Shown in pieces: positions 1,010-37,452 of a stretch of DNA of 41,647 nt. This stretch comes from a virus. The notes under the pieces are model-generated. The model was given only the letters and a program-made list of their open reading frames with translations, searched no databases and was not told where the DNA came from. The DNA lies in the IMG/VR virus record IMGVR_UViG_3300011240_000001, positions 1 through 41,647 of that record; one strand, written 5' to 3'. The position numbers and the translations under genes are program-made. The stretch's first letter is position 1; each line of letters begins with the position of its first letter.

Positions 1010-2224
1010 ATGCTCAACGATACAAAGATAAAAAAACTAAAACCAATGGAAAAAGCATACCGTATTGCTGATCAAGGCGGGCTATGTATTGAGGTTCGTT
1101 CAACAGGTACAAAGTTGTGGCGCGTTCGATATCGTTTTGCTGGGAAAGCATCAATGATCAGTCTGGGTGAATACCCTATTGTTGGTCTTGCTGAAGCGCG
1201 TCAAAAGCAGGAAGAAATAAAAGCACTACTTGCCAACAATATTGATCCTGCCGCACATCGCCAGCAAGAAAAAGCTGCACTGCTTTGTGATGAAAATAGT
1301 TTTGAAGCTATCGCAAAAGAGTATGTGGCTAACCGCCTGCAAGATAAATCCCAGACATATATAGATGCTTTTCATCGAGCAATGGAAAAGGATATCTATA
1401 AAGTCATTGGTCGTAAAAATATTAAAGATGTGACCTCTGCTGATGTTTTAAAGATCATGCAAAACACCGTGAAGCGCGTTAAGGGTCAAGATAATCGTGG
1501 TTCTGGTGAAGTCACTGCGATTGAAAACAGAAAGAAGATTGGTTCTGTGATGCGTTATGCAATCGCCACATTGAGAGCTGAGAACGACCCAACTTATGCG
1601 GTGCGTGAAGTAATAGCACGTCCAGAGGTAGAGCATGCACGACCTTTAAGTCTAACTGAACGTAAAATATTTAGAGCGCGGATCGATAGCTATGGTGGTG
1701 CCGAGTCAACGATCAATTCTATTTTATTTTTATTCTATACAATGCTTCGCACAATTGAGGTACGCCGACTCCAATGGTCATTTATTGATTTTAAAGAAAG
1801 AACTATTACTTTTGAAAAGCAGACACGCGAACAGCTCAAAAAGGGTATGCGTCTAACCAAGAAAAATAGAACGCATGTAGTTCCAATGTCTGAGCAGGTT
1901 TATCAACTTCTACTCAAGCAAAAGAAGCTTACTGGCCGAAAAAAATATGTTTTTGAGGGTGTCTATAATGGCGGGATGATGCCAGCAACAACAATAAATA
2001 GAGCCTTGCAGTACATTATGCAGAATGTCACAGCACATGATTTCCGGGCTACTGCATCAACCTTGCTAAATGAATTGGGGTATGAAGAAAAATGGATTGA
2101 AACACAGTTAGCACATGCGGATGAGAATAAAACCCGTGCGTCGTATAACCACGCCAAGTATCTAGCGGACCGTAAAAAAATGATGCAGGATTGGGCTGAT
2201 ATTGTGGATAGCTGGAAGGAATAA
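1010..2224 (+). CDS. int: Tyrosine integrase, P4-like (N-terminal arm-binding DUF4102-type domain)
   Basis: The N-terminus KIKKLKP..YRIADQGGLCIEVRSTGTKLWRVRYRFAGK is typical of P4-type integrases. The C-terminal catalytic pattern is present: LRTIEVRRL, HDFRATAST, LAHAD, SYNH. Confidence 0.92.
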   Translation: MLNDTKIKKLKPMEKAYRIADQGGLCIEVRSTGTKLWRVRYRFAGKASMISLGEYPIVGLAEARQKQEEIKALLANNIDPAAHRQQEKAALLCDENSFEAIAKEYVANRLQDKSQTYIDAFHRAMEKDIYKVIGRKNIKDVTSADVLKIMQNTVKRVKGQDNRGSGEVTAIENRKKIGSVMRYAIATLRAENDPTYAVREVIARPEVEHARPLSLTERKIFRARIDSYGGAESTINSILFLFYTMLRTIEVRRLQWSFIDFKERTITFEKQTREQLKKGMRLTKKNRTHVVPMSEQVYQLLLKQKKLTGRKKYVFEGVYNGGMMPATTINRALQYIMQNVTAHDFRATASTLLNELGYEEKWIETQLAHADENKTRASYNHAKYLADRKKMMQDWADIVDSWKE

Positions 2225-2859
2225 TGAATATTTCAAAATTAGCATCTACGGTAATTTTAGCCACCGCATTTTCAACAATATTTCTTTTTGCGATTATTTT
2301 TTATTTGTTGTATGACGGTAGCGTTGATAATTTAAAGGATGCTTTATCAGTAACCGCTAGTTTCTTTGGGGGAATTACTACGTTGGTGGCTGCATATATT
2401 GCTGCCCAACTGTTTAATGATTGGAGAGATGAAAAAAATCACGAACTTACGTCTAGTTTAGCCATGGAGTGCGTAAGAGATTATTTAAAAGCTAAAGATA
2501 TGTTTTTCTTTTATATTTTCCAATACGAGTACGGTATAGAGAGTATAGCATTCAAGGACCTTGATAATCATTTCACAAGTACGCATAGCAAGCTAACTAT
2601 CCTTAATAAAATTCTAAATAAAACTAAATCCGGGGTACTTGAGAAGAACGTGATTGATCTGCTCTTTACTAATAATTATCAAAATCTTTATAGGGAAATA
2701 AATAGTGAATCTAAACTAAGAGCCGCTGATGTTCAGCGCCTTCAGGCCATAAATAAGGAGTTCTTGGATAAATTAAAGGTCGATGAAAAGGAGGTTTTAG
2801 CCGAGAGGCTTATTGAGTTATTAATATCTTTAAAATCCCCACATTCACATTCGTTGTAA
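2224..2859 (+). CDS. Membrane protein of unknown function (two N-terminal TM helices plus a helical domain), translationally coupled to int
   Basis: TAATG overlap with the int stop. Hydrophobic segments are VILATAFSTIFLFAIIFYLL and FFGGITTLVAAYIAAQLF. The gene is visibly AT-rich. Confidence 0.7.
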   Translation: MNISKLASTVILATAFSTIFLFAIIFYLLYDGSVDNLKDALSVTASFFGGITTLVAAYIAAQLFNDWRDEKNHELTSSLAMECVRDYLKAKDMFFFYIFQYEYGIESIAFKDLDNHFTSTHSKLTILNKILNKTKSGVLEKNVIDLLFTNNYQNLYREINSESKLRAADVQRLQAINKEFLDKLKVDEKEVLAERLIELLISLKSPHSHSL

Positions 2860-2903
2860 TTGAATGAGCCGTGCAACCCGATAGAAGGATGCACAGCATT
2901 AAA

Positions 2904-3671
2904 CTAATTATCTTGAGCTGCATATTTAAGGTTATCCGCAACACGATTGACCCACCCTTTGCCCCATGTCGGCCATGTTTTTAATGACGTATAGAACCTT
3001 AACCGCTCAGCAGTCAAAGTTAGAATCACATCATTCAGATCATGTGCATTCACAGCTTCCATGGTTTTAGGCCCAATGATGCCATCTGCAGTTACGCCAA
3101 CTGCTTGTTGTAATTCCTGAATCGCACGTTTCTTGCCGGCATTAATTGCAAAATCCCAGAGCTGGAATGTGATAGCTGAATGCAGACCATTACCGCCCAA
3201 TTTATCCCACCAGTCTTTTTTGTAGATCTCTTTGGCTTGGGCAAGTGATAGGTTTTTAATGTCCAGATTTGGGTAGGTATTTGCAGCAATACCGTATTTA
3301 GTACCCTTTAATACACCTACCCCTACCTTACCACCAGTCCAGTTACCCGGGTCGCGTTTATCATTGGTATACCCGCCCTCATGACCGATCAAGCGCCGGA
3401 ATGCTTCATCAAAGGTAATTGAATTAGCAGGCAGCTTTGCAAAGCCTAAAATTGTTGGCTCGGGATGTAGCTCTGGCTGATATTTCTTTTTACCAAAGTA
3501 AGCCAGCGCAGGCAGTACGATGGTTAAAATCAATGAATGGTATTCAGCCGGAATGAGCTGTGTATTGATTCCTTCCTGCAGTAAAACAGGAATAACGCCC
3601 AATAAAAAAGCCCCAATTAGAGGCCATTTGACGCTGGTATATTTCAGCGCATTTTCTTGTAAAAAATTCAT
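2904..3671 (-). CDS. Endolysin: GH108-type muramidase plus peptidoglycan-binding domain, with an N-terminal double-TM extension
   Basis: The GHEGGYTNDKRDPGNWTGG motif is the GH108 hallmark. The C-terminal segment ADGIIGPKT..RLRFY is like PG_binding_3. The first ~65 aa hold two hydrophobic helices. ATGA overlap with the upstream gene. Confidence 0.85.
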   Translation of the reverse strand: MNFLQENALKYTSVKWPLIGAFLLGVIPVLLQEGINTQLIPAEYHSLILTIVLPALAYFGKKKYQPELHPEPTILGFAKLPANSITFDEAFRRLIGHEGGYTNDKRDPGNWTGGKVGVGVLKGTKYGIAANTYPNLDIKNLSLAQAKEIYKKDWWDKLGGNGLHSAITFQLWDFAINAGKKRAIQELQQAVGVTADGIIGPKTMEAVNAHDLNDVILTLTAERLRFYTSLKTWPTWGKGWVNRVADNLKYAAQDN

Positions 3672-4261
3672 TTCGTTTCACTCATATAGTTGCGTTCATA
3701 AAGTTTGTTGCGGATTTCATCTAGGAGGCGAATTGTCTGATCAGACTGCTTTTCAAGGACCTGGATTTTCTGGGTATTTTCATCAGTCTTTCGCTGGCTT
3801 TCTTCAACATCGTTTGACAGTGCTACCCATGAGCCAACAATCGCAGAAATCAGCCCAATACCACCCCATTTAAAATATTCACCTAAGGCAGTCACGCGAG
3901 TTTTACTTTCATTTAAAATGCGCAACTCGACTTCAGTTTCTCTTTTGGTGGTCCGAATATCCTCGGTGATGTTATTAATTTTGAGATCTGATTCTTGCCG
4001 AACCTGCTTAATCTCGCTTTTAAAGTTTGACTTAGCCCGATCCAGATCATCTTGCAAATTATCCCGGGTTTGACTTAAGTCATTCCGGGTTTGCTGATGC
4101 TCCTTATTTACTTGCTCCAGCTGCATATTCATACGGTCAAGCTTTTGAGGTAGTTCAGCCAACTTATCCATACTTTTTCCAAGATCGTTAATCTTGTCTG
4201 ATATAGCAAGAAGCTGACCTGCTGTTGCTACTGGTGGGTCAGATGAGTAGTCATTTGACAT
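3668..4261 (-). CDS. Coiled-coil protein with a single TM helix; holin-like by position only
   Basis: Long heptad-like Q/E/K/D-rich sequence with one hydrophobic helix (WGGIGLISAIVGSWVAL). It sits immediately upstream of the endolysin and is coupled to it. Confidence 0.5.
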   Translation of the reverse strand: MSNDYSSDPPVATAGQLLAISDKINDLGKSMDKLAELPQKLDRMNMQLEQVNKEHQQTRNDLSQTRDNLQDDLDRAKSNFKSEIKQVRQESDLKINNITEDIRTTKRETEVELRILNESKTRVTALGEYFKWGGIGLISAIVGSWVALSNDVEESQRKTDENTQKIQVLEKQSDQTIRLLDEIRNKLYERNYMSETK

Positions 4262-4284
4262 TGCGCCCCCTAAATTTTGGTAAT

Positions 4285-4316
4285 AAAAAACCCCAATCTA
4301 ATTAAAGATCAGGGTT
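4285..4316 (-). terminator. Strand-specific rho-independent terminator immediately upstream of the lysis genes
   Basis: Minus-strand RNA AACCCUGAUCU-UUAAUU-AGAUUGGGGUU followed by UUUUUU. It forms 11 bp only if two G-U pairs are allowed; the plus-strand version has two mismatches. Confidence 0.7.
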
Positions 4317-4469
4317 GGTGATGGTTTGTTGGGTGTTAGGTGGTATAAGCTTTAATAATGGTATGGCGTGCCGAGCCATGTTAAGGCTTCAGTAATAGCT
4401 GCTAAATTTTTCGGCATTAGTCAATCATTTCCTTTATCATTCGCACATTACATTTATCTATCTCGAACT

Positions 4470-5591
4470 ATGTCAAAAATTAATTCTGCTGAAAGCATTA
4501 GGGGGCTAGCTTGTATAGCTGTCGTTTTTTCCCATTTAGCATTAGTTTTCTATCCATCTCTTCATGACTACGATCAATCCGGATTACCAAAATATAATTT
4601 TTTTGATTATCTATATAATTCACCCCTAGCTTTTATATATTCGGGCAATGCAGCAGTTTATGTTTTTTTTGTTTTAAGTGGATTTGTTCTGAGTTATGCC
4701 ATACTAAATAAACAAAAAGATATAAATAAAAAAATTCTATCTATGTCTATAAAACGGTACCCTAGATTGGCGATACCAGCAATTTTTTCAGTTCTATTAT
4801 ATTGGTTTGCATTTCAACTAAATTTAAATATGACTAATGCAAGTGATTGGATTACACGCCTTGGATCGCAATCAGGCTCTATATTCGATGCTGTTTACGA
4901 TGGCTCTATAAGATCTTTCATTTTTGGTGAATCTAATTACAATTGGGTCCTTTGGACAATGCAGGTTGAGTTAATTGGGTCATTCGTAATCTTTATCTTG
5001 GCATATCTACAGTTAAAACAAAAAATCTTGGCCTTAGCCTTCTCTGCTTTATCAATCCTACTTTCAGCCACTATTGTTTCAATAAACTTTGCTTTTGGTA
5101 TTATGTGTTTTGTTATAGGTATGGCATTTTACCTTTTTGGAAAAAGAATAAATTTCATTACCTCATTAATAATGCTTTTAGTAGGCCTATACCTAGCTGG
5201 CATTCATAACACAAGCTATTCTTATCAATGGATATACAATGTTCTTGGGGATAAGTCATACAAACTAGTCACCATTTTATCCGCTCCATTTATCGTTTAT
5301 AGTATTTTAATGAATGAAAAAATGTCTAATTTTCTTGATAAAAAGTCACTAGTTTTTTTAGGAAAACTATCATTTTCAATTTATTTACTACATTTTTTAG
5401 TTATCTATCTGGTAGCGATGCCTCTTTACAACGCATTACTTAATAATCTTGGTTTTTTAGCCAGCTCAATTATTGCTTGTATTTCAACACTAGTTGTTAC
5501 CATCTTAATTTCTATACCATACAGTAATTATATTGATGATTTGTCTATCAATGTAGGTAAAAAAATCGAAAATTTTCTAATGAAAAGATGA
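4470..5591 (+). CDS. Acyltransferase family 3 integral membrane protein (surface-polysaccharide O-acyl/acetyltransferase type)
   Basis: The N-terminus SIRGLACIAVVFSHL is typical of acyltransferase_3. The protein has about 10 hydrophobic helices. The gene is opposite in orientation to its neighbours and visibly AT-rich. I preferred the ATG at 4470 over the GTG at 4368. Confidence 0.8.
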   Translation: MSKINSAESIRGLACIAVVFSHLALVFYPSLHDYDQSGLPKYNFFDYLYNSPLAFIYSGNAAVYVFFVLSGFVLSYAILNKQKDINKKILSMSIKRYPRLAIPAIFSVLLYWFAFQLNLNMTNASDWITRLGSQSGSIFDAVYDGSIRSFIFGESNYNWVLWTMQVELIGSFVIFILAYLQLKQKILALAFSALSILLSATIVSINFAFGIMCFVIGMAFYLFGKRINFITSLIMLLVGLYLAGIHNTSYSYQWIYNVLGDKSYKLVTILSAPFIVYSILMNEKMSNFLDKKSLVFLGKLSFSIYLLHFLVIYLVAMPLYNALLNNLGFLASSIIACISTLVVTILISIPYSNYIDDLSINVGKKIENFLMKR

Positions 5592-5635: not shown

Positions 5636-6775
5636 TTAAAGCCAAGAATTAGTAAGTTCAGTAATTTCTGATTGCGTTAAAACTCGATCATAAACTACTA
5701 ATTTAGTCACGATACCCCTCAAACCGTTTCGAGCAATTGGACTGTTATATCCATAACCAAATGTTATATCAGTTACAGTAAACGGATTTTCAATTGCCAA
5801 TGCACCCTCTGCAACACCGTTAAATGCACCACGAATCCCCCCATTATTGATCGCAATAGCGTTGTTGTATGGGTGGAAGCGATTGGTTGGCGAATATGAG
5901 CCAGAAATTACAGCTGTGTTGTTTGTCGGTGTACTGCCAACATATTGAATAGTGTAACCATGATATTGGTCTTGATTCGCCAAACCGCCCATTTTTAAAA
6001 GTTTCAAATTTGAACCAGCTTCTAAGCCTAATCGATTCACAACATGATTCGATTGATTCACAGTCCCGTTGAAATCTATTGTTTGAACTAAGACTGTAAA
6101 AGCACTTTTGTTTTGAATAATTGAGTTGAATAATGATTGCTTAACTTTGACCAGTTCCCGTGCTCGAATTGCCGAAGTTGAAGTAGTTTTCACTTTGCTA
6201 GTTGCAGTTTGAGCACCAGTTGCGAGTTCAATTTGAGCATGTGTAAGCGTTCCGCTGACAGCAATATTTAAGTTACATGCTGTAGTAGCACTTAAGCGTT
6301 CCAATGTTTTTGGAGTATCAGCTGTCACTGTAATTGGAGCACCAACAATATCGCCCGTAATCGTTAACGATCCTGTACCCTCACAAGATGCAACAATTTT
6401 TGTAGCAGCGGCTGTCATAACAATAGTTTGTGTGGCAGGGGCTGAACTATTCAAGAAAAAGTTTTCATTCACGTCTTCAGCAAGTAGTCCGAAACGACCA
6501 TTTTTTAATAAGGCTGTACGAATTTCTGTTGTTGATGTAACAAACTTTTCAGTACCATCTTTTGAAATAGAAATTGGAGCACCGTTTAGATTTTGACGTG
6601 TCGCTTCAACAACATCAGTAAGCTTGTAATCTTGTTTTAAAAGACCTGCTTGTTTTGTCGCATAAAGCTCGTTTTCAAAATCAAAGAACATAGCCCAATC
6701 TTGTGGCCCATTAATGCCATTGACGTTGCCCATGCTCACAGTTGCTTTTTTGTCAGATTTAATAATTACAGTCAT
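5636..6775 (-). CDS. Tail fibre-associated protein (possible LamG/ConA-like lectin C-terminus)
   Basis: ATGA overlap with the upstream fibre gene. The protein is Thr/Ser/Gly/Asn-rich and beta-like. The C-terminal segment VVYDRVLTQSEITELTNSW resembles the end of LamG-type domains. Confidence 0.55.
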   Translation of the reverse strand: MTVIIKSDKKATVSMGNVNGINGPQDWAMFFDFENELYATKQAGLLKQDYKLTDVVEATRQNLNGAPISISKDGTEKFVTSTTEIRTALLKNGRFGLLAEDVNENFFLNSSAPATQTIVMTAAATKIVASCEGTGSLTITGDIVGAPITVTADTPKTLERLSATTACNLNIAVSGTLTHAQIELATGAQTATSKVKTTSTSAIRARELVKVKQSLFNSIIQNKSAFTVLVQTIDFNGTVNQSNHVVNRLGLEAGSNLKLLKMGGLANQDQYHGYTIQYVGSTPTNNTAVISGSYSPTNRFHPYNNAIAINNGGIRGAFNGVAEGALAIENPFTVTDITFGYGYNSPIARNGLRGIVTKLVVYDRVLTQSEITELTNSWL

Positions 6776-12528: not shown

Positions 12529-13004
12529 GAGACCCCCAAAGCATTCGGCATTGTTTCGTTCACTAATTTTTCAAGTAAATTCAGCATCTCAAGTGGATTG
12601 CCCGATTCCCACAGGTCCACAATCTGCTGATCGAAGGTCAAATCACCATTGTTTAACGGTTTACAGCGCACCTGGAATGACACGGAATAAATCACACCGC
12701 TACGCTCACCGACTGACAGAGAATCAGCGACGAACTGGCAGGTATGATCCTGTGCTTCAGCTGAGTCAGTTATCAGTCGCCATAAAAATGGCTTTGGATC
12801 GAGCGTATGCAATCGCCAAAATGCCCAGAAATACTGAGCATGGGTTTTGGTTTTAAGCAGTACAGATACATTGGCCACATGCACGTTATTTACAAACATT
12901 CTTCGCTGACGGGCGAACCCGCCAGGAAGTTGCTGCTCCAACATATTGTTGCCAGGTGAAAAGGAATACCCGGCTTGTAACGGGCATAACGCAAAACTAT
13001 TCAT
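12525..13004 (-). CDS. Minor/distal tail protein (lambda M position)
   Basis: Immediately downstream of the tape measure gene, with a TAATG overlap. Confidence 0.6.
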   Translation of the reverse strand: MNSFALCPLQAGYSFSPGNNMLEQQLPGGFARQRRMFVNNVHVANVSVLLKTKTHAQYFWAFWRLHTLDPKPFLWRLITDSAEAQDHTCQFVADSLSVGERSGVIYSVSFQVRCKPLNNGDLTFDQQIVDLWESGNPLEMLNLLEKLVNETMPNALGVS

Positions 13005-15910
13005 TATCGCTTAACTCCCGCTGTGGTGTTGCGCTGCACCTGCTTTGATTCAAACGAGTTTGGATTCGCCAAATTAGACCAAGATTGCTTGATTTTCTTT
13101 TCCACAATATCAATGGTTACAGCCCCATCAGCACCGCGACTTTGCTCAGCCGTGTACCCAGGAGGAACATTGATATTGATTTGAGGTCCATTGTTGCTCT
13201 GATTGGCAATCATGTTTTTCAAATCGGCATTCGTCCGACTATCGACAACACGTTCGCCTTTATCCAAGAGCCATGTGCCTTCTTTCGGAATATTGTCGAT
13301 ACCGTCGTGGGCCATGCCTGCAATGGTTTGGCCGGCGATGATACCTGCGCTCATGTATCCATTGATCTTGATCAAGGATGAAAGTGGAGCACCAGCAACC
13401 GGCCCTAAACCAATAGGAGGTGGTGCCAACGCTGCCGCAGAAGCAACATTGGCATAGATAATTGCTTGGGCTGCTGCCATTGACTGTTGAATCAAAAACA
13501 TTGCCTTGAAAGCGCTAGACTGCTCACCTTGGCTGTCTTTGACAAGTTGGGTCATGTTGCCCCAAATCGAACTGACTTGAGATAACATTTCACCATACAG
13601 GTTCATTTTATTGTTGTATTGCTGAAACTCTAACTCCCACTCTTGGCTTGCATACTCTTCCGTTAGAGCTTTTTTAGCGTCCAGATAGGTTTTATACGCA
13701 TCATTGAGTCGCGCATATTTTTCTGTTTCACTTAAAAACTCATCATCTTCAATAGCTGCACGAGCAGAATAAAGACTATCAGCAAGCTGAGAATAACCAT
13801 CTTGCTGGTTGTTATTAATGCTCCATTGGTCATACTGGCTGGAACTTAGAGATGCTTTTGCTCTGGCATTTACACCAATACCCACCATATCGCTGATCGG
13901 ATTGTTTATTGCGCTGAATGCGGCTTGCTTTTTTGCATCCTGAGCTTTTTTAAACTCGGCGATATCTTTTTCATAAACCAGTCTTTGAAGCTTTAAATAC
14001 TTCTCACGGCTTGGATCATTTTCTGCAAAAGCCTCCTTGATTTCTTGAATAGAAACGGCATTTTCATACTCAATCTTTTCCTGCCCAGAAAGAAACTCTT
14101 TAGCAATAGCATGCTGCTTTCTTAAAGCTTCCTCTCTCAGTTTTTGAGTATCCTCATTAGCCTTTGCAACAATTGACACCTCTGCCTGAGCGTCCTTGAG
14201 TATCTCACTCGTTCCTTTATAGCCAAGAACAGAGACATGCACGTGCCCACCAGTAGATCGCCCAGATGGATTCGCATATTCATTAATTGCCTTAATGGTA
14301 AAGCCGTATTTTTTGGCTACTTCTTGTAGTCGCTTAATTGAGGCATTGGCTTCACTTTCATCCTTAACAGTAAAGTCAAAAGCCTGACCAACTGCATGTT
14401 TGCTATTAGTACCTTTATGATAGCTGTCATTAAAAGCTGTAAAACGATTAAGCTGAGAACCTAAAGCATCTTGAGCCAGTTTGGCAAATTCTGCTGTATA
14501 ACCTCTTACCTTGCCGCCAGCAACAGATTCACTAGACTTAATACGCAATCCATTTAATGCTGAAGCACCAACAAGGCCATTAAGTTTTTCCTGTTCTTTT
14601 GCTGCTTTGGCTGAAGCTGCTGCGGCCTTTTCCTTAGCTTTAGCATTCTCATCCGCAGCCTTAGTATCTATCTTTAATCCGGTTGCAGACTTGGTAGAAG
14701 CTGAATTGACAGCCAGAATAGCATTTACCAAATTGTTAGATGATGTGCTTGCAGTTGAACTGGATTCACTTAGGGAATTTATACGAGTTCCATAATCATC
14801 AAGAGTGGCAGCAATATCATCAAACATAATATTGATAGTATTGATTTTCTCACCCTTAAGAGCAGCAATCGCAGCAGCCACACCGCCAATCAATTTGCCG
14901 GCTATGCTAAAAGCTGCTGAAACTCCAAGCGCAACTTTGGTTACTGTTCTTAATACAGAACCAATGCCCTCACCAACCTGTTGAAGCTGAATACCATTTT
15001 TCGATGTACCAAAAATTGCATTTGCTACATCCACGATTGCTGGCATAAAGCCAGATACCAGCTGGTTTTTCCAGCCTTGAAATTGAAGGTTAACAGCCTG
15101 TGTTTGTGCTGCCAGAAGTTGAGATTGCTTGATAGCTTCTTCTGTTTTGAGTATCCCGGCATCTTCCAACGCCCTGCCGTAGTCGTCCAGAAGTTTTCCA
15201 TTTTCTGCGAATAACGGTGCAAGATTCCCTAGATCTGATGCCAAGCTTTCAAATACAAAGCGACGTTCTTGCGAGGTAACACCAAGCTCATCCAATTTAT
15301 CATTAAGCATTTGGATTGCTTCAATACCATCCTTGCCCTGAAGTGTTTTGGCGAATGACTTGATCTGATCTTCAGATAGTTTTGTATTATTCTTTAGGGC
15401 ATCAAAGAAGTCGGCAGCCCCACCACCCTGAGTTGCACTAAATTCACCCAGTTTTTCTTGTGTATCAGCCAGAATAGAACCCAGTTGATCTTGTGACACG
15501 CCCAAACCTTGGGATGCATACTCCAAGATCTGAAAACTTTTTACGCTTGTATTTGCTCGGTTTGCCAAAACCTGTAATTGACTATCTGCCTTTGCTGTTT
15601 CAATTGCTAGATGAGTTAGCCCACCAACAGCAGCCGTTATACCTCCAACCGCCATACCAGCCAGTGCTGCGCCCGCAACAAGAACCCCGCCTTTTAGCGA
15701 TGCCATTTTGGTATTAAATGAATCAACAAGCGATCCTAATTGCGTTCCATCTAATGCATCTGCAACTTGATCTTTAAATCCAGCAAATGCCTTATTCATG
15801 CCATCAGTGGTTTGTTTAGTCTTGCGCTCTGCCTGTGACATACCCTGTTCAAATGAACCGAGTTTTACTGCCAAATCTAGGGTCAATCGACCAAGGGATG
15901 CTGCTGCCAT
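13004..15910 (-). CDS. Tail tape measure protein with an embedded M15/LAS-type metallopeptidase motif
   Basis: 968 aa, Ala/Gly/Gln-rich and helical, with hydrophobic glycine-rich blocks. It contains the internal motifs SKHAVGQAFDF and GGHVHVS. Confidence 0.9.
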   Translation of the reverse strand: MAAASLGRLTLDLAVKLGSFEQGMSQAERKTKQTTDGMNKAFAGFKDQVADALDGTQLGSLVDSFNTKMASLKGGVLVAGAALAGMAVGGITAAVGGLTHLAIETAKADSQLQVLANRANTSVKSFQILEYASQGLGVSQDQLGSILADTQEKLGEFSATQGGGAADFFDALKNNTKLSEDQIKSFAKTLQGKDGIEAIQMLNDKLDELGVTSQERRFVFESLASDLGNLAPLFAENGKLLDDYGRALEDAGILKTEEAIKQSQLLAAQTQAVNLQFQGWKNQLVSGFMPAIVDVANAIFGTSKNGIQLQQVGEGIGSVLRTVTKVALGVSAAFSIAGKLIGGVAAAIAALKGEKINTINIMFDDIAATLDDYGTRINSLSESSSTASTSSNNLVNAILAVNSASTKSATGLKIDTKAADENAKAKEKAAAASAKAAKEQEKLNGLVGASALNGLRIKSSESVAGGKVRGYTAEFAKLAQDALGSQLNRFTAFNDSYHKGTNSKHAVGQAFDFTVKDESEANASIKRLQEVAKKYGFTIKAINEYANPSGRSTGGHVHVSVLGYKGTSEILKDAQAEVSIVAKANEDTQKLREEALRKQHAIAKEFLSGQEKIEYENAVSIQEIKEAFAENDPSREKYLKLQRLVYEKDIAEFKKAQDAKKQAAFSAINNPISDMVGIGVNARAKASLSSSQYDQWSINNNQQDGYSQLADSLYSARAAIEDDEFLSETEKYARLNDAYKTYLDAKKALTEEYASQEWELEFQQYNNKMNLYGEMLSQVSSIWGNMTQLVKDSQGEQSSAFKAMFLIQQSMAAAQAIIYANVASAAALAPPPIGLGPVAGAPLSSLIKINGYMSAGIIAGQTIAGMAHDGIDNIPKEGTWLLDKGERVVDSRTNADLKNMIANQSNNGPQININVPPGYTAEQSRGADGAVTIDIVEKKIKQSWSNLANPNSFESKQVQRNTTAGVKR

Positions 15911-15928
15911 AACTTTTCCTCAGGCAAT

Positions 15929-15951
15929 AAAAAAGCGCCCTTTCGGACGCT
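15929..15951 (-). terminator. Rho-independent terminator closing the moron cassette, just before the tape-measure SD
   Basis: Minus-strand AGCGUCC-GAAA-GGGCGCU (one G-U pair) followed by UUUUUU. GAGGAAAAGTTATG of the tape measure gene follows. Confidence 0.75.
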
Positions 15952-15970
15952 CTAGAACCATTAAATACTT

Positions 15971-16378
15971 CTATAGATTTTTTTCACAATAAGGTGATGC
16001 ATTAGTTAATCGCGGATCAGGCTTATAATTAAATGTGGCAGATCCTAAATAGTTAACTTTCAGTGTAAGCTCTTCATTAGTGTTTTTAGTAATGGTTTGT
16101 TTTAATCCATTCTGCATATACATCACACCGTCAGCAATTTTAAGCTTTTCTAATGTATTTGAATCACCATAACTTGAACACATCAATCCGGTTCCATCAC
16201 CATTGAATTTAAATGTCACTAGATAAGGGCCATTGTTGCCAGACCAGTATCCATTTAATGAATTGTCATTAGGTAGAATGGTGGTGAAATTATTTTTCAG
16301 CATATCGCTGGTTGGGCTAGCGCATCCAATCAAACCCAGACATGCAAACCCTGCAAATAGTATTTTTTTCATACCCAT
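15971..16378 (-). CDS. Lipoprotein of unknown function
   Basis: Signal peptide MKKILFAGFACLGLIGC with lipobox LIGC. The gene starts 3 nt after the upstream stop. Confidence 0.8.
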   Translation of the reverse strand: MGMKKILFAGFACLGLIGCASPTSDMLKNNFTTILPNDNSLNGYWSGNNGPYLVTFKFNGDGTGLMCSSYGDSNTLEKLKIADGVMYMQNGLKQTITKNTNEELTLKVNYLGSATFNYKPDPRLTNASPYCEKNL

Positions 16379-16381
16379 TCC

Positions 16382-16825
16382 TTAAAGCAAATTATTGGTG
16401 TTTGTAATAGCTAGCTTTACACCATAACTACCCTCACCATCATCGTCAAGCCAACCGCCATCGATAACTGCTGGAACTGTTTTATTTATTACTCTTCCAG
16501 CTAATTTAGCTACCTCAACCTTACTTATATAACCAACGATCAAGCCATTAATCTCAACTTTAATTGCATTTTTGTCATATTGGTTAAATGGATCTGATGA
16601 AACTTTTGCATAACATTCAAAAAACTTTGATTCTTCCTCTTTTGGTCCTGCTATTTTTTTTAAATTATTTTGATATGCTTGCTCACCCACAATGTTGTAC
16701 GCGTATGAAATGTTGTTTGGGTTTGGATTTATACTTGTTTCACTTGCTGCCTTTTTAGCTTTCAAAACATACCAAATAATCACACCAACAATTACTGCTA
16801 TTACTATTTCCACACCCCACCCCAA
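16382..16825 (-). CDS. Membrane-anchored HIRAN-domain protein
   Basis: N-terminal TM helix VEIVIAVIVGVIIWYVL. The segment VGEQAY...DPFNQYDKNAIKVEINGLIVGYISK matches the HIRAN core (compare human HLTF NPYDKNAIKV). The frame has no ATG, so the start is TTG 16825 or GTG 16813. Confidence 0.75.
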   Translation of the reverse strand: MGWGVEIVIAVIVGVIIWYVLKAKKAASETSINPNPNNISYAYNIVGEQAYQNNLKKIAGPKEEESKFFECYAKVSSDPFNQYDKNAIKVEINGLIVGYISKVEVAKLAGRVINKTVPAVIDGGWLDDDGEGSYGVKLAITNTNNLL

Positions 16826-16877
16826 ATATTTGTTATTCAGGACAAGATACTAATTATTAGGTGAAAAAGAAACCAAG

Positions 16878-17518
16878 CTAACCTGATTTCTTCTTAATAG
16901 CCTGCATGCGCTGCTCTTCAAAGGACATTTCTGGTTCATCCTCGTGAGGCATGTAATCATACGGATTGACTTCAACCTCTGGCCCAACATTATGTTGTCT
17001 ATATTGAGCCATTAAAGCCCCGATACTTTGCTCAATCCTACGCCCTGTGAAAAATGAGCCGCGCTTATTTCTAAGAGCAGCCCATTTCGAAACTTCAGCA
17101 TTAGTCATATTTAACTTGGCTTCAGCAATCGTGCGACCACCAACCCCATTCAAAACCAGTTCACACCAGAATTCATCATCCAGTGTTAGTCTGACTTTCC
17201 CTCTTCATCTAGAGGCGCTTTTTCAATACCAAGAATCGCATTGAAAATTGCCGAAGCCAGTGATTGAGTGAAGTTGGCTGCAACTTGTTTTTTGGTTAAA
17301 TAAGCCTTGCCGTTTTCATCAACCAAAGCAGCAGAAATCCATTCAGCAACCACATCTTCCCCTTTATTCAAGCGAGTAAATAGTGGCTCTGTCACAGCAT
17401 AAGGCAATTGTTTGATAGAGATTTCGACAGTTTCTTTTTTGCCGAAATGCTTAAATTCAACAGTCTTGTTATGGGTTTCACTTACAAGTGAGCCTTGAAT
17501 GATTTCATTTAACTTCAC
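16878..17518 (-). CDS. Tail assembly chaperone frameshift product (GT analogue)
   Basis: The -1 frame is open from 17204 to 16878. The only candidate start in that frame is TTG, which fits expression by frameshifting. Confidence 0.8.
17186..17518 (-). CDS. Tail assembly chaperone (lambda G analogue)
   Basis: Located between the major tail protein and tape measure genes. It ends with a slippery site and an overlapping -1 frame. Confidence 0.85.
   Translation of the reverse strand: MKLNEIIQGSLVSETHNKTVEFKHFGKKETVEISIKQLPYAVTEPLFTRLNKGEDVVAEWISAALVDENGKAYLTKKQVAANFTQSLASAIFNAILGIEKAPLDEEGKSD
17195..17201 (-). promoter_or_regulatory. Programmed -1 ribosomal frameshift heptamer G GGA AAG
   Basis: Minus-strand GGGAAAG in X XXY YYZ register, five codons before the G stop. 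It is the same heptamer as the lambda G/GT site. Confidence 0.85.
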
Positions 17519-17997
17519 GGAGCCACCACCTTAAATTCATCAGTTACTTCAGTTTGGCGTTTCATTGGAATGGTGTGATTTACCAGCGCATCAGCATCAA
17601 ATACCGGTGAGCCTTTGCGCAGAATTGCACGGAAAGATGACCATGTGCGATCTTCTGGGAGTGTCACGGTATTTCCGGAAACTGTTGGTACAGCATCGCC
17701 ATCAGACCAGCCTACATACACGCCCACTTCCGCACGCTCAGCCGCAAGCTGCAATAAAGTCATGTGAGTTGCGTTTTTGGGATCAGTATCAATCTGGATT
17801 GAACCTTCACCCGGTGTAGTTAAACCCCAATCCGAAGTTGCTGTGGTTTCTTCTTCCAGACAGGTTGTATTGATTTCTGTGGTACTGTCATCGCCAAGCA
17901 CTAGAGCTTTGATGCAGTTCATTTTTGTTAATGTTGGAGTATCGCCATGTAAAATCCATACATGCGTACCCTGAGATAAAACACCTTTCTTCGCCAT
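17515..17997 (-). CDS. Major tail (tube) protein
   Basis: 160 aa, directly upstream of the G/GT chaperone with an ATGA-type overlap. A terminator and strong SD context are present. Confidence 0.75.
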   Translation of the reverse strand: MAKKGVLSQGTHVWILHGDTPTLTKMNCIKALVLGDDSTTEINTTCLEEETTATSDWGLTTPGEGSIQIDTDPKNATHMTLLQLAAERAEVGVYVGWSDGDAVPTVSGNTVTLPEDRTWSSFRAILRKGSPVFDADALVNHTIPMKRQTEVTDEFKVVAP

Positions 17998-18068: not shown

Positions 18069-18578
18069 TTATTCAAATAGACATGGCTGCATAAGTCGCT
18101 CGACTTCCGTGATTGCAGTCATTAATAAATCTCGTTTCTTGCGATAGCTTCCTAAAACACTACCTGCAAGGCTTGCATCTGATTTCGCCAGATCAAGCTG
18201 AAGTGATAATTTGTTGTGAATATTGTTATAGCTTTGATCTTGTGAGCGAATGAATTCTCGCGTTTCAAAGAATGCTTTCACCAAAGCCTTCTTAAACTCA
18301 ATTACTCGCGGGCTGTTTCGCATGAGCGTCATTAGGAAAGTGGCTTGTTGTTCATTTAATGGGACAAATTTACGCTCTTGAGTACCACCATTTGTCTCAA
18401 AGGATTGGATTTTAAATCTAACCCTTCCAAATTCTTGGAAGTCAGGCATGTAAGTTCTAACCAACTTAATAACTGTTGCATGCTGGATACCTAAGCCAAG
18501 CGCTATCTGCAAAGTGGTCGTCATGGGTTCGCCATTTTCGACTTTAACAATTGCGATTGGTTTTAACATAGCATTCAT
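18069..18578 (-). CDS. Rha-family phage regulatory protein (moron within the tail module)
   Basis: TTLQIALGLGIQHATVIKLVR fits the Phage_pRha N-terminal pattern. AAGGAGT lies 7 nt before ATG 18578. The gene is flanked by terminators. Confidence 0.75.
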   Translation of the reverse strand: MNAMLKPIAIVKVENGEPMTTTLQIALGLGIQHATVIKLVRTYMPDFQEFGRVRFKIQSFETNGGTQERKFVPLNEQQATFLMTLMRNSPRVIEFKKALVKAFFETREFIRSQDQSYNNIHNKLSLQLDLAKSDASLAGSVLGSYRKKRDLLMTAITEVERLMQPCLFE

Positions 18579-18640
18579 AATTAACTCCTTTTGAGTTGTG
18601 ATGAGCCTGAATGCTGAACGCATATAAAACACTCAGGCAT

Positions 18641-18663: not shown

Positions 18664-18682
18664 CATGTGTAAAGCTTAAAAA

Positions 18683-27006: not shown

Positions 27007-27474
27007 TCAACTTCTCAATTGTGAACCCAGTGTTCCAAACTTCCCGCCTTGAGTGGCTTTTTTGGCTTCATCGGCTTTAGTTTCTTTCTTGCCTTTTTCA
27101 GCAACCTTGCCGTGTACATAAGGCAAAGCAGCTTTTGCGGCATTGAAACGCAAGAACATATCGTCACTCTTATTCATGACATCAATCAGGAATTGCAGTG
27201 GATCATCCTTTGCATAATCCTCATCATCCAAAGGGTTGTCATCTTCATGAGTGCTGATCGTTTTAACTTTCGGTTTTTCAGAAGTTAAACTTCGGCCTTC
27301 TTTATCAGCCTTTAACTTTTCAATGTAGACAATAATCTCAGGATCTTTTCTTAGTTTTGACCCTGCCTGTGATGCTGTCTTTTCTGCATAACCTGCTGAA
27401 ATTGCAGCTTCTTTGTTGCTTAAGCCGTCAACAACGGCCTGAGCAAACTTTTTCATTTTTTCGCTTAGTGCCAT
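27007..27474 (-). CDS. terS: Terminase small subunit
   Basis: KKFAQAVVDGLSNKEAAISAGYAEKTASQAGSKLRKDPEI is the HTH N-terminus typical of the P27/Terminase_2 family. Confidence 0.8.
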   Translation of the reverse strand: MALSEKMKKFAQAVVDGLSNKEAAISAGYAEKTASQAGSKLRKDPEIIVYIEKLKADKEGRSLTSEKPKVKTISTHEDDNPLDDEDYAKDDPLQFLIDVMNKSDDMFLRFNAAKAALPYVHGKVAEKGKKETKADEAKKATQGGKFGTLGSQLRS

Positions 27475-27588: not shown

Positions 27589-27768
27589 CTACCATCTGCG
27601 ACGACGATCATCTTCCTGAACATCTCTCTGCACAACCTTCGCCACACCTTTTAACTGGGCTGCCATCTTGCAGTAATTCTCTATATCTTCGCGCTGAATG
27701 ACCTTGCCGGCCTGTAATGATGCGACAAGATAGTCATGCGCCATATCTTCAATAGTTTTCTCAGTCAT
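27589..27768 (-). CDS. Small hypothetical protein (59 aa), not in the ORF track
   Basis: ATGA overlap with the HNH stop. It translates as MTEKTIEDMAHDYLVASLQAGKVIQREDIENYCKMAAQLKGVAKVVQRDVQEDDRRRRW. Confidence 0.55.
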   Translation of the reverse strand: MTEKTIEDMAHDYLVASLQAGKVIQREDIENYCKMAAQLKGVAKVVQRDVQEDDRRRRW

Positions 27769-28055
27769 ACTCGACTCTCCTTGCTCGTCTTCTTCTTATG
27801 ACATGGCACACACAACGACTGAAGGTTAGCTTCATCATCCGTACCGCCTTGAGCCACATTAACGATATGGTCCAACTCAAGCTCCATAGTCACACGACCA
27901 CATGAACAGCAGGTCCACTCATCACGTGTATGAATCTTCTGCTTAAGTCTGCGCCACGGTCTACCACCACGACCTTGACCCCAATTATTCTTAGGTGGTC
28001 TCGGTGCCTTCGGTGTCATCGCCTGTAGTTTGCTTTGCAGTCTGGGTAGTTTCAT
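27765..28055 (-). CDS. HNH endonuclease (terminase-associated type)
   Basis: CCSCG....LELDHIVNVAQGGTDDEANLQSLCVPCHKKKT is an H-N-H motif with flanking Cys pairs. The gene lies just upstream of terS. Confidence 0.9.
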   Translation of the reverse strand: MKLPRLQSKLQAMTPKAPRPPKNNWGQGRGGRPWRRLKQKIHTRDEWTCCSCGRVTMELELDHIVNVAQGGTDDEANLQSLCVPCHKKKTSKESRV

Positions 28056-36729: not shown

Positions 36730-37452
36730 ATGAGTCTTCTTATGGTTGGTTTAACTTGTGGTGATCGTGTTAGAGAAGCGCGCACTAGATTGGGATTGTC
36801 ACAATCGGCACTAGCTAAAAAGTCAGAGGTGTCGCAAGCCGCTATCTCTAAAATTGAGAATAATGAGACTGATAACTCAAAATATATTGCTCAGGTAGCG
36901 AAGGCTTTAAATACCTCAGTGGATTACCTGATCTATGGGAAAGAATATATAAAGAAACAATCTGGAAGCCTTAATGACTTTGTTATAGTCGGTGGTGAAA
37001 ATCCAGGTGAAAAGCCAAGCGTTGATGAATATGTCCTTGTTCCTCAATTTGATATTTATGGCTCATGTGGTGGCGGTTCTATCATAGATAGCGTGGAAGT
37101 TAAGGGTGGTCTGGTATTTAGCCGACAGTGGATCAGAGAGCAAGGCTTGCCTAACCCAGACGATCTGCGTGTAATCTATGCGAAAGGCGAAAGTATGTAC
37201 CCTTCTATTGAGGATGGTCAGGTGCTTTTAGTTAATCCTCATGACAACATACCGAAATCGAATAAGGTTTATTTCCTATGTATTGATGAGCAATATTATG
37301 TGAAGCGCCTTATTAATATGGTGACGCACTGGGTAATCAGATCGGACAATCCAGACAAGGTTCAGTATCCAGACATCATACTTTCACTAGAAGAAATTAA
37401 AGAAAAAATAGAAATTGAGGGTCGCATCTGCTGGAAAGGCGGATCAATGTAA
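36730..37452 (+). CDS. cI: CI-like repressor: XRE HTH plus S24 (LexA-like) autopeptidase domain
   Basis: LGLSQSALAKKSEVSQAAISKIENN is an HTH. GESMYPSI supplies the catalytic Ser and YYVKRL the Lys. Confidence 0.9.
   Translation: MSLLMVGLTCGDRVREARTRLGLSQSALAKKSEVSQAAISKIENNETDNSKYIAQVAKALNTSVDYLIYGKEYIKKQSGSLNDFVIVGGENPGEKPSVDEYVLVPQFDIYGSCGGGSIIDSVEVKGGLVFSRQWIREQGLPNPDDLRVIYAKGESMYPSIEDGQVLLVNPHDNIPKSNKVYFLCIDEQYYVKRLINMVTHWVIRSDNPDKVQYPDIILSLEEIKEKIEIEGRICWKGGSM

Follow-up and report, generated by a model that had tools for sequence, protein, structure and literature searches.

An exchangeable moron slot in an Acinetobacter prophage carries a membrane-anchored HIRAN-domain protein and a lipoprotein between the tail chaperone and tape-measure genes

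The window analysed here is the whole of a 41,647-nucleotide stretch of viral DNA (IMG/VR record IMGVR_UViG_3300011240_000001, positions 1 to 41,647). On its minus strand, a two-gene cassette lies between the genes for the tail assembly chaperones (G and its frameshifted fusion, GT) and the gene for the tape measure protein (TMP). The first gene encodes a small protein with a single transmembrane (TM) helix and a divergent HIRAN domain, here called the TM-HIRAN protein; the second encodes a lipoprotein of the J517_1871 family. Comparison with 159 loci fetched for their gene context revealed a hot spot whose cargo is exchangeable and in which the two genes are independent occupants, not a dedicated pair. 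The best explanation that we can offer is that the prophage, an HK97-like cos siphophage of Acinetobacter, has a moron slot between its G/GT and tape-measure genes, filled with two independently acquired and exchanged cargo genes that would protect the lysogen at two layers of its envelope. Taking anatomy and function jointly, we put this forward tentatively, as the leading candidate and not yet as a probable one.

The interval holds a low-GC cassette with its own terminator

The genes of the minus strand run in the order tail tube, G, T, TM-HIRAN gene, lipoprotein gene, terminator and tape-measure gene. The features of the interval are as follows.

17515–17997, minus strand: major tail tube protein gene (Pfam Phage_TTP_11, 6.4e-44)
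17186–17518, minus strand: tail assembly chaperone G (Pfam Phage_TAC_13, 4.5e-24; phrog_1749)
17195–17201, minus strand: slippery heptamer G GGA AAG for a −1 frameshift giving the GT fusion (read from the sequence)
16878–17153, minus strand: T part of the GT chaperone (phrog_5297, 2.7e-20; Pfam Phage_tail_T at 0.0011, below its cut-off)
16864–16895, minus strand: A/U-rich 14-pair hairpin with a T-tract, overlapping the T stop codon, weak and terminator-like (RNA fold)
16842–16853, minus strand: conserved 12-nt motif leading the cassette, TTAGTATCTTGT (the exact motif recurs across loci)
16382–16813, minus strand: TM-HIRAN protein gene, start GTG 16813, 143 aa, with a single-pass anchor and a divergent HIRAN domain
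15971–16372, minus strand: J517_1871-family lipoprotein gene, start ATG 16372, 133 aa, lipobox LIGC
15923–15953, minus strand only: intrinsic terminator (9-pair stem 15953–15932, GAAA loop, T-run) directly before the tape-measure ribosome-binding site (RBS), called by a terminator scan
13004–15910, minus strand: gene for the 968-aa tape measure protein, which contains a LAS-type metallopeptidase motif (assigned from length and position, weak VanY and Peptidase_M15_4 matches, and homology to the TMPs of related loci)

A −1 slip at the heptamer, near the end of G, continues in phase into the T open reading frame (ORF); since the heptamer is canonical and the slip in phase, the G/GT assignment is sound. 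The cassette has a GC content of 34.5–35.3%, against 39–46% in the flanking tail genes, and its borders are sharp: compared with close relatives, the window shows a 469-bp insertion and a 470-bp swap, both described below. Extra DNA of different base composition and a terminator of its own, two of the three features by which a moron in the sense of Juhala and Hendrix is recognised, were both found; for the third, a promoter of its own that is active in the repressed prophage, the conserved 12-nt motif is a candidate. These data, together with the recurrence of the same gene order in 41 of the fetched loci, bear out the preliminary description of this DNA, which had proposed an accessory cassette splitting GT from the tape-measure gene and a strand-specific terminator before the tape-measure RBS. 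It had also held that the two tail genes are normally contiguous. They usually are, but a cassette between them is not unusual, this being the site of the prototype moron, HK97 gp15.

The gp15 moron, the first ever to be given that name, occupies the same slot, in the order GT, a 57-nt gap, gp15, terminator and tape-measure gene. Both gp15 and the TM-HIRAN protein are small, with a TM helix that begins at residue 3 and is followed by basic residues. According to the summary in PMC3594210, gp15 resides in the inner membrane, is expressed by the prophage, blocks genome entry and confers superinfection exclusion (Cumby et al., 2012). It resembles the TM-HIRAN protein in position and architecture only: BLASTP of gp15 against the window protein produced no alignment at E ≤ 100. 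Moreover, gp15 is a YebO-related protein of 62 aa with no HIRAN domain, whereas the slot in the window holds two cargo genes.

The window as a whole is a complete temperate siphophage genome, with an integrase (1010–2224), a CI-like S24 repressor (36730–37452), TerS/TerL, a portal protein, an HK97-type capsid and a J-like tip protein. All closest relatives of its proteins come from Acinetobacter. A gene for a small HNH endonuclease (27765–28055, minus strand; C-x2-C ... H-N-H ... C-x2-C), which finds HNH matches in the PDB at 1.4e-5, lies directly upstream of TerS (27007–27474), and its position adjoining TerS marks an HK97-type cos-packaging arrangement.

The two cargo genes are exchanged independently

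In the 41 loci that share the gene order of the window, a HIRAN gene is followed by a small co-oriented gene, here called X, and then by an ORF of tape-measure size, in many cases with a chaperone or tail-tube homologue upstream. They include loci whose HIRAN protein is only 33–45% identical to that of the window. The product of X is exported, carrying a signal peptide or a lipobox, in 40 of the 41. The X genes fall into at least 11 sequence-unrelated clusters, and the type found in the window (X3) is common only to loci L027–L029 (L numbers denote loci of the fetched set). Pfam scans of ten representative X proteins returned nothing significant.

Close relatives of the window define the exchanged segments. 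The four nearest ones (L017, L013, L003 and L014), whose HIRAN proteins are 85–95% identical to that of the window, carry a 2-Cys periplasmic protein in the place of the lipoprotein. Nucleotide homology to these loci ends at about 16405 and returns at 15934, so that the lipoprotein gene and the terminator stem together form a discrete swapped segment (15935–16404, 470 bp). In L150, a close relative of the whole tail module, the lipoprotein (86% identical) follows directly after GT and no HIRAN gene is present; compared with this locus, the window contains a 469-bp insertion (16373–16841) that includes the TM-HIRAN gene.

The lipoprotein family is also found directly before the tape-measure gene and without HIRAN in A. 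baumannii prophages, where it stands behind HicAB, YdcA and DUF4236, and in cultured phages such as phi1_092021 and vB_AbaS_TRS1, the record of the latter annotating flanking terminators around it. Altogether the lipoprotein occurs in 17 cultured Acinetobacter phage records, some of which are duplicate accessions of one phage; in Ab11510-phi, a cultured phage that has the gene, the neighbours are unannotated and the TMP was not identified. Two prophages of ATCC 17978 have a "putative lipoprotein" annotated immediately before the tape-measure gene, and in L151, a locus from a metagenome, the TMP gene immediately precedes the lipoprotein gene instead of following it. TM-HIRAN genes, for their part, also reside away from tail genes, on Acinetobacter chromosomes (L095, L096 and L099) and in other phyla.

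The preliminary description had treated the two genes as a dedicated pair, which would make them an obligate two-component envelope system. They are indeed adjacent, 3–9 nt apart and co-oriented; the gene after HIRAN nearly always encodes an exported protein; and in L027–L029 a diverged HIRAN protein (60% identical) is followed by a diverged J517-type lipoprotein (35% identical). Such a system is nevertheless very unlikely given the number of unrelated downstream clusters, the different gene carried by the closest relatives between the breaks at 16405 and 15934, the presence of the lipoprotein gene where HIRAN is lacking (L150, A. baumannii prophages and the cultured phage records), and the different compartments predicted for the two proteins. 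The claim of a pair is therefore dropped in favour of two independent occupants.

We also considered whether the type of X protein tracks the type of TMP, as a periplasmic inhibitor matched to the muralytic domain of the TMP might. No such tracking was seen: X2 tends to accompany TMPs of ~970 aa, but the TMP that accompanies X3 in the window is of the X2 type, and four TMP types are found alongside X3. The TMPs themselves vary. That of the window has its LAS-type zinc-peptidase motif (H-x6-D ... H-x-H) at 14291–14413 (minus strand; TMP residues ~500–540), and related TMPs (L001, L005, L150) contain an SLT lytic transglycosylase domain instead, which means that the muralytic module of the TMP is itself swapped.

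The commonest occupants of the position before the TMP gene, clusters X1 and X2, are small periplasmic proteins of 105–136 aa with a signal peptide and no significant Pfam match (L001 6446–6796, L003 6446–6769, L005 6438–6794 and 26 further loci); the members inspected have two cysteines, one near each end. Larger contents are seen in L152–L155 (A. baumannii prophages, ~2160–4400) and L147 (phi1_092021), where HicA/HicB, YdcA, DUF4236 and a 177-aa gene precede the lipoprotein, showing how much cargo the slot can carry.

Family-level evidence places the TM-HIRAN protein in the HIRAN superfamily as a divergent member

The maximal ORF of the first gene (16382–16825, 147 codons from TTG 16825) contains neither an ATG nor an internal methionine. 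Its relatives are 143 aa long and begin with an ATG or GTG aligned with GTG 16813 of the window. Because their start codons fall exactly there, this GTG is the likely start, in keeping with the earlier proposal of a TTG or GTG start. A hydrophobic N-terminal helix (Kyte–Doolittle hydropathy 2.78) spans residues 3–26 in the AlphaFold2 (AF2) model.

An exhaustive search recovered a family of 1,268 cluster representatives at E ≤ 0.001, most of them 130–200 aa long, with more than 1,200 clusters at 50% identity. Its members share the pattern IVGE-YQ...EP-N-YD-NA-V-I-G-VGY...GGW...G-YGV-L. Pfam HIRAN (PF08797) is matched by 86 of 90 aligned members at E ≤ 0.01 (best 1.6e-11), and the family profile matches the HIRAN domain of HLTF at 2.6e-8 and the bacterial protein lp_0118 at 6.3e-5. 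In the family-profile alignment, the string YDKNAIKV of the window protein is identical in HLTF, and N81, Y83 and D84 align to the NPYD motif of the HLTF 3'-OH pocket (N91, Y93 and D94). Across the family N81 is invariant, D84 is conserved in at least 90% of members and position 83 is Y, F or H.

The AF2 model has a mean predicted local distance difference test (pLDDT) score of 87. A structural search of BFVD placed viral HIRAN proteins on top (E 9.5e-6), and the top Foldseek matches in the PDB were all HIRAN structures, with weak scores (E 0.011–0.18, TM-score 0.2–0.42). The likeness to the HIRAN domain of HLTF (PDB 4XZF, 4S0N, 2MZN) and to lp_0118 (3K2Y) thus comprises the family-level core match, the shared string and the top structural matches. 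The window protein differs in being membrane-anchored and stand-alone, with no SNF2 translocase, and in the low TM-scores. The model also has an alpha-helix (residues 48–59) where HLTF has its RYY segment, so that in our own alignment the contacts of HLTF R71 and Y72 are not conserved.

The HIRAN domain with an N-terminal TM helix first assigned to this gene consequently holds at the level of the family, while the window sequence by itself is sub-threshold (E 0.025, 14.8 bits against a cut-off of 24.7) and matches over residues 77–106 only. We conclude that the first cargo protein is a divergent HIRAN-superfamily member that keeps the 3'-OH pocket motif. This conclusion is solid at the family level; the DNA specificity of the protein is a prediction. 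Some relatives already carry the NCBI label "HIRAN domain-containing protein". Stand-alone HIRAN proteins in prophages were reportedly noted when the domain was described by Iyer, Babu and Aravind in 2006.

Other HIRAN proteins in a defence context share the domain only. The PADLOC candidate models PDC-M03B are matched by 58 of the 90 family members, and by the window protein at only E 0.0072, over the HIRAN core. No PADLOC match was found for the neighbouring lipoprotein, and the locus does not qualify as a PDC-M03 system. HipN and HipL likewise resemble the window protein at the domain level, and no HipA kinase or partner gene accompanies it. One relative, P0133 (634 aa), combines the TM helix and HIRAN domain with an RNase_T-type exonuclease (Pfam PF00929) and a BRCT domain; exonucleases of the RNase_T type act with 3'–5' polarity.

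Several variants of the protein were seen in passing. Five long ones (300–350 aa; L040 5992–6969, L050 5785–6771, L056 624–1667, L062 5797–6702, L066 5764–6789) have in common a conserved domain at the C-terminus, some 130 aa long (...YEFWsDkDELd-F-IkKPSK...NPdLEK), that Pfam does not recognise, and four of the five occupy the same tail slot. The chromosomal copies (L095 5890–6351, L096 5989–6438, L099 5887–6318) have as neighbours genes for small membrane proteins and for a Cys-rich protein resembling a four-helix bundle. In L099 the copy is without the VGE and GGW motifs and may be decaying.

The TM-HIRAN gene appears dispensable for growth

A nucleotide search with the cassette against cultured phages gave no match, and tblastn with the TM-HIRAN protein against the same phages found one Nostoc phage only and no cultured Acinetobacter phage. 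The absence of the gene from all cultured Acinetobacter phages searched and from the near-identical tail module of L150 implies that it is dispensable for growth. This argues against a role in the lytic cycle, in which the protein would be made late and would tether or protect the 3' ends of cos or of replication intermediates, or hide ends from nucleases or sensors. Such a role would fit the position of the gene inside the late tail operon, its orientation and the lack of an evident consensus promoter, as well as the behaviour of the ATCC 17978 prophages, whose lipoprotein genes at the equivalent site rise with the late genes on mitomycin C. The foreign GC content and the flanking hairpins do not fit it, and end protection needs no membrane anchor. 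On balance we think a lytic role unlikely.

A role in the virion or in ejection, with the protein guiding the end of the DNA into the cell, would likewise explain the location between the chaperone and tape-measure genes, and the combination of a membrane helix with a DNA-end-binding domain. Close relatives with the same tail genes lack the TM-HIRAN gene, however, the indel that contains it is sharp and low in GC, and the protein has no PHROG structural annotation, which leaves a virion function extremely improbable.

A cytoplasmic orientation is predicted for the HIRAN domain

The hydrophobic helix of the window protein begins at residue 3–5, has no basic residue before it and is directly followed by KAKK. 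Of 90 relatives, 50 possess such a helix at the N-terminus; on average, they carry a net charge of −0.16 ahead of it and 2.8 lysines or arginines in the next 15 residues. According to the positive-inside rule, the short N-terminus would be outside, the helix would serve as an inner-membrane tether and the HIRAN domain most likely faces the cytoplasm. The charge distribution thus points to a cytoplasmic domain that does not act in the lumen of the envelope, and the envelope-located action of HIRAN suggested in the preliminary description is not supported.

The predicted topology would also put the domain where imported DNA emerges, and the HIRAN ligand is a 3'-OH single-stranded end. The TM-HIRAN protein could thus block natural transformation by trapping the leading 3' end of imported single-stranded DNA, which would save the prophage from recombinational deletion. 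The 3'-first polarity of DNA uptake comes from Gram-positive work and is here applied to Acinetobacter. Relatives of the protein are found in the naturally competent genera Acinetobacter, Neisseria and Streptococcus, as well as in many genera in which we know of no competence. A paper on the conflict between prophages and transformation describes thaL in the lysogeny modules of pneumococcal prophages, and reports no functional test of it. Like the window gene, thaL encodes a prophage-borne membrane protein with a HIRAN domain; it differs in its Gram-positive host and in belonging to a lysogeny module and not a tail module, and it is named only, not characterised. The likeness is by description, the Streptococcus matches in our family search being only weak. 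We regard an anti-transformation function as quite unlikely.

The second gene encodes a remote LptY-like lipoprotein

The maximal ORF of the second gene (15971–16378) has 135 codons. Because its homologues are 133 aa long and begin with MKK at the second ATG, the start was placed at ATG 16372. The earlier call of a lipoprotein with lipobox LIGC is confirmed by a full-length match to NCBIfam NF045606 (J517_1871 family lipoprotein; 2.1e-44, 150.7 bits against a cut-off of 60) and by phrog_4487 (4.7e-39). The protein is probably sorted to the outer membrane.

AF2 models it (pLDDT 85.7) as a barrel of 8 strands with a short N-terminal helix at 23–27 and a C-terminal helix at 129–134. Cys67 in strand 3 and Cys131 in the C-terminal helix are invariant in the family. 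Foldseek ranked the pneumococcal lipocalin lipoprotein 5cyb first (target TM-score, TMt, 0.77) and the LptDE–YedD complex second (9fz5_C; E 0.026, TMt 0.55). An hhalign comparison of the family with E. coli YedD yielded a probability of 90% (E 1.4e-6) over 64 N-terminal columns, signal peptide included, and a precomputed match to PF13987 (YedD) is present on all 46 homologues.

LptY, as YedD is now called, is a 137-aa E. coli protein with an 8-strand lipocalin-like barrel and a C67–C123 disulfide. It binds and stabilises LptD's periplasmic beta-taco domain, is important for outer-membrane integrity in a dsbA background, and has been reported as restricted to Enterobacterales. The layout of the published protein, with its lipobox, barrel, short N-terminal and C-terminal helices, and cysteines in strand 3 and the C-terminal helix, is found again in the 133-aa window lipoprotein, which differs in being phage-borne and from Acinetobacter; LptD binding by it would be an analogy only. 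Judging from profiles and models, we regard it as a remote LptY-like protein and not as an established member of the LptY/YedD family.

Two further small phage-encoded lipoproteins, T5 Llp, which binds FhuA, and Rtp45, which binds LptDE, block superinfection from the periplasmic side. The window lipoprotein resembles them by description; their genes adjoin receptor-binding genes, whereas the window gene adjoins the tape-measure gene. By analogy with Llp and Rtp45 and from its LptY-like fold, LptD appears a reasonable candidate target of the lipoprotein.

A conversion role at the outer membrane is equally open for this protein. As a lysogenic-conversion factor, it would alter outer-membrane or lipooligosaccharide-transport properties, such as barrier function or resistance, and would not act in exclusion. 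The LptY-like fold and cysteine pattern and the part played by LptY in outer-membrane integrity agree with this, and the prophage also carries an Acyl_transf_3 gene of a surface-modification type. The homology to LptY is remote, however, and the lipoprotein family almost always adjoins a phage tape-measure gene, which fits a phage-directed role as well as it fits hot-spot linkage. As an account of the locus in place of exclusion, conversion seems unlikely.

Cargo units share a leader and flanking hairpins

The units of cargo follow a common order: a hairpin with a T-tract, about 12–14 AT-rich bases, TTAGTATCTTGT, a leader with a Shine–Dalgarno (SD) sequence, and the gene. The hairpin that opens the cassette in the window (16864–16895) was not called by the terminator scan; relatives have stronger, sequence-unrelated GC hairpins at this position. 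At the other end, 28 of 29 distinct gaps between X and the TMP gene contain a GC hairpin with a T-run, after which comes the conserved tape-measure RBS.

The exact TTAGTATCTTGT occurs in a single copy in the window and on the coding (plus) strand of 33 of the 159 fetched loci. In most loci it stands before HIRAN; in L150 the lipoprotein gene follows it, and in L001 each of the two cargo genes has a copy ahead of it. The motif contains the −10-like hexamers TAGTAT and TATCTT, in place of which diverged lineages have TATCCT or TATGAT at equal distance, and the leader from the motif to the gene measures 23–28 nt in five copies. A consensus scan upstream of the cassette called no sigma-70 promoter and found no acceptable −35 element. 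From its sequence and placement, TTAGTATCTTGT is a candidate promoter, or a candidate junction favouring cassette exchange. Together with the terminators, the TTAGTATCTTGT leader suggests a simple modular grammar for swapping cargo in the slot.

Two observations concern the leaders themselves. In L001, the two copies of the motif (5201–5212 and 5961–5972) precede a 227-aa lipoprotein gene and the HIRAN gene, respectively. The leader and signal-peptide region of this lipoprotein gene are homologous to those of the unrelated J517 lipoprotein in L150, which suggests that cargo may be exchanged by recombination within shared leaders. In the window, pairing is possible between a leader rich in pyrimidines, UAUCUUGUCCUGAAUA, and the G-rich stretch that holds the SD and the start, UAUUUGGGGUGGGGUG (16811–16850, minus strand; fold z-score −2.2). 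As 12 related leaders show no compensatory change, just one-sided G–U/G–C changes, an SD-sequestering hairpin stays unproven, and an Rfam scan of the region found nothing.

A proposal for protection at two envelope layers

The tentative reading of two cargo genes that protect the lysogen can be spelled out as follows. The best precedent, HK97 gp15, is one of position, and for the TM-HIRAN protein we propose a step related to that of gp15 but different from it. Both genes would be read as one short unit ending at the strong terminator and would be expressed from the prophage. From its inner-membrane anchor, the TM-HIRAN protein would seize linear DNA by its 3'-OH end as it emerges at the cytoplasmic face, for example the cohesive end of a related cos phage, and the capture would prevent circularisation or establishment of the incoming DNA. 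The partner of the lipoprotein would be a component of the outer membrane, possibly LptD by analogy with LptY and Rtp45.

The exclusion or defence acting on incoming DNA ends that had been proposed at the outset is plausible. The characterised HIRAN ligand is a 3'-OH single-stranded end, and published speculation holds that bacterial HIRAN domains sense invading DNA ends. Further hints in support of an end trap are the pocket motif, the exonuclease fusion in P0133, the overlap with PDC-M03B, thaL and the HNH/TerS arrangement.

Several observations weigh on the other side. The window protein alone scores below the Pfam HIRAN threshold, its fold matches in the PDB are weak (E about 0.01, TM-score 0.2–0.4) and it lacks R71 and Y72 of HLTF. 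Its HIRAN domain is slightly acidic, with 12 K+R against 14 D+E. A scan of about 20 long relatives turned up the exonuclease–BRCT fusion only once, and one zinc ribbon besides. No consensus sigma-70 promoter precedes the cassette. The cohesive ends of HK97 are 3' overhangs, and those of the window phage are only presumed to be. As for the lipoprotein, its signal peptide contributes part of the hhalign score with YedD, the current Pfam copy gives it no YedD match, just a weak DUF5640 one, and a profile search of PDB sequences with its family did not find YedD.

A broader version of the proposal would make TM-tethered stand-alone HIRAN proteins widespread prophage traps for DNA ends that block superinfection, curing by transformation or both, possibly including thaL, while, separately, Acinetobacter phages would carry a mimic of LptY that targets the lipopolysaccharide (LPS) translocon. 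We consider this extension doubtful.

Already known are the moron slot, the fact that small membrane proteins and lipoproteins can exclude phages, stand-alone HIRAN proteins in prophages, and the HIRAN label on relatives. We found no description in the literature of the recurrent module of TM-HIRAN gene, exported-protein gene, terminator and tape-measure gene in Acinetobacter prophages, of a function for membrane-tethered HIRAN proteins, or of a phage-borne LptY-like lipoprotein. Morons at the chaperone–tape-measure junction are the textbook case of a prophage gene from which the host profits, yet the mechanism is known for few of them. If 3'-end capture holds, it would be a new exclusion mechanism that acts after membrane passage and not at the receptor or channel, and would give a large family of stand-alone HIRAN proteins from bacteria and phages its first function. 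If its proposed role is right, the LptY-like lipoprotein would add Acinetobacter, a pathogen of priority in phage therapy, to the hosts whose LPS translocon is targeted by phages; prophage-encoded exclusion there would narrow the host range of therapeutic phages.

Other accessory genes of the prophage

Elsewhere in the tail region, a gene for a Rha-family regulator (18069–18632, minus strand; Pfam Phage_pRha, 2.2e-16; phrog_518) lies between the tail-completion and tail-tube genes. It is bracketed by terminator-like hairpins at 18664–18647 and 18047–18032, and relatives have P22_AR_N antirepressor-like genes at its position, which looks like a second moron slot. The Acyl_transf_3 gene mentioned above encodes a membrane acyltransferase (4368–5591, plus strand; 5.7e-33). 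It lies near the integrase end, on the strand opposite to the tail genes, and is likely a lysogenic-conversion gene that modifies surface polysaccharide.

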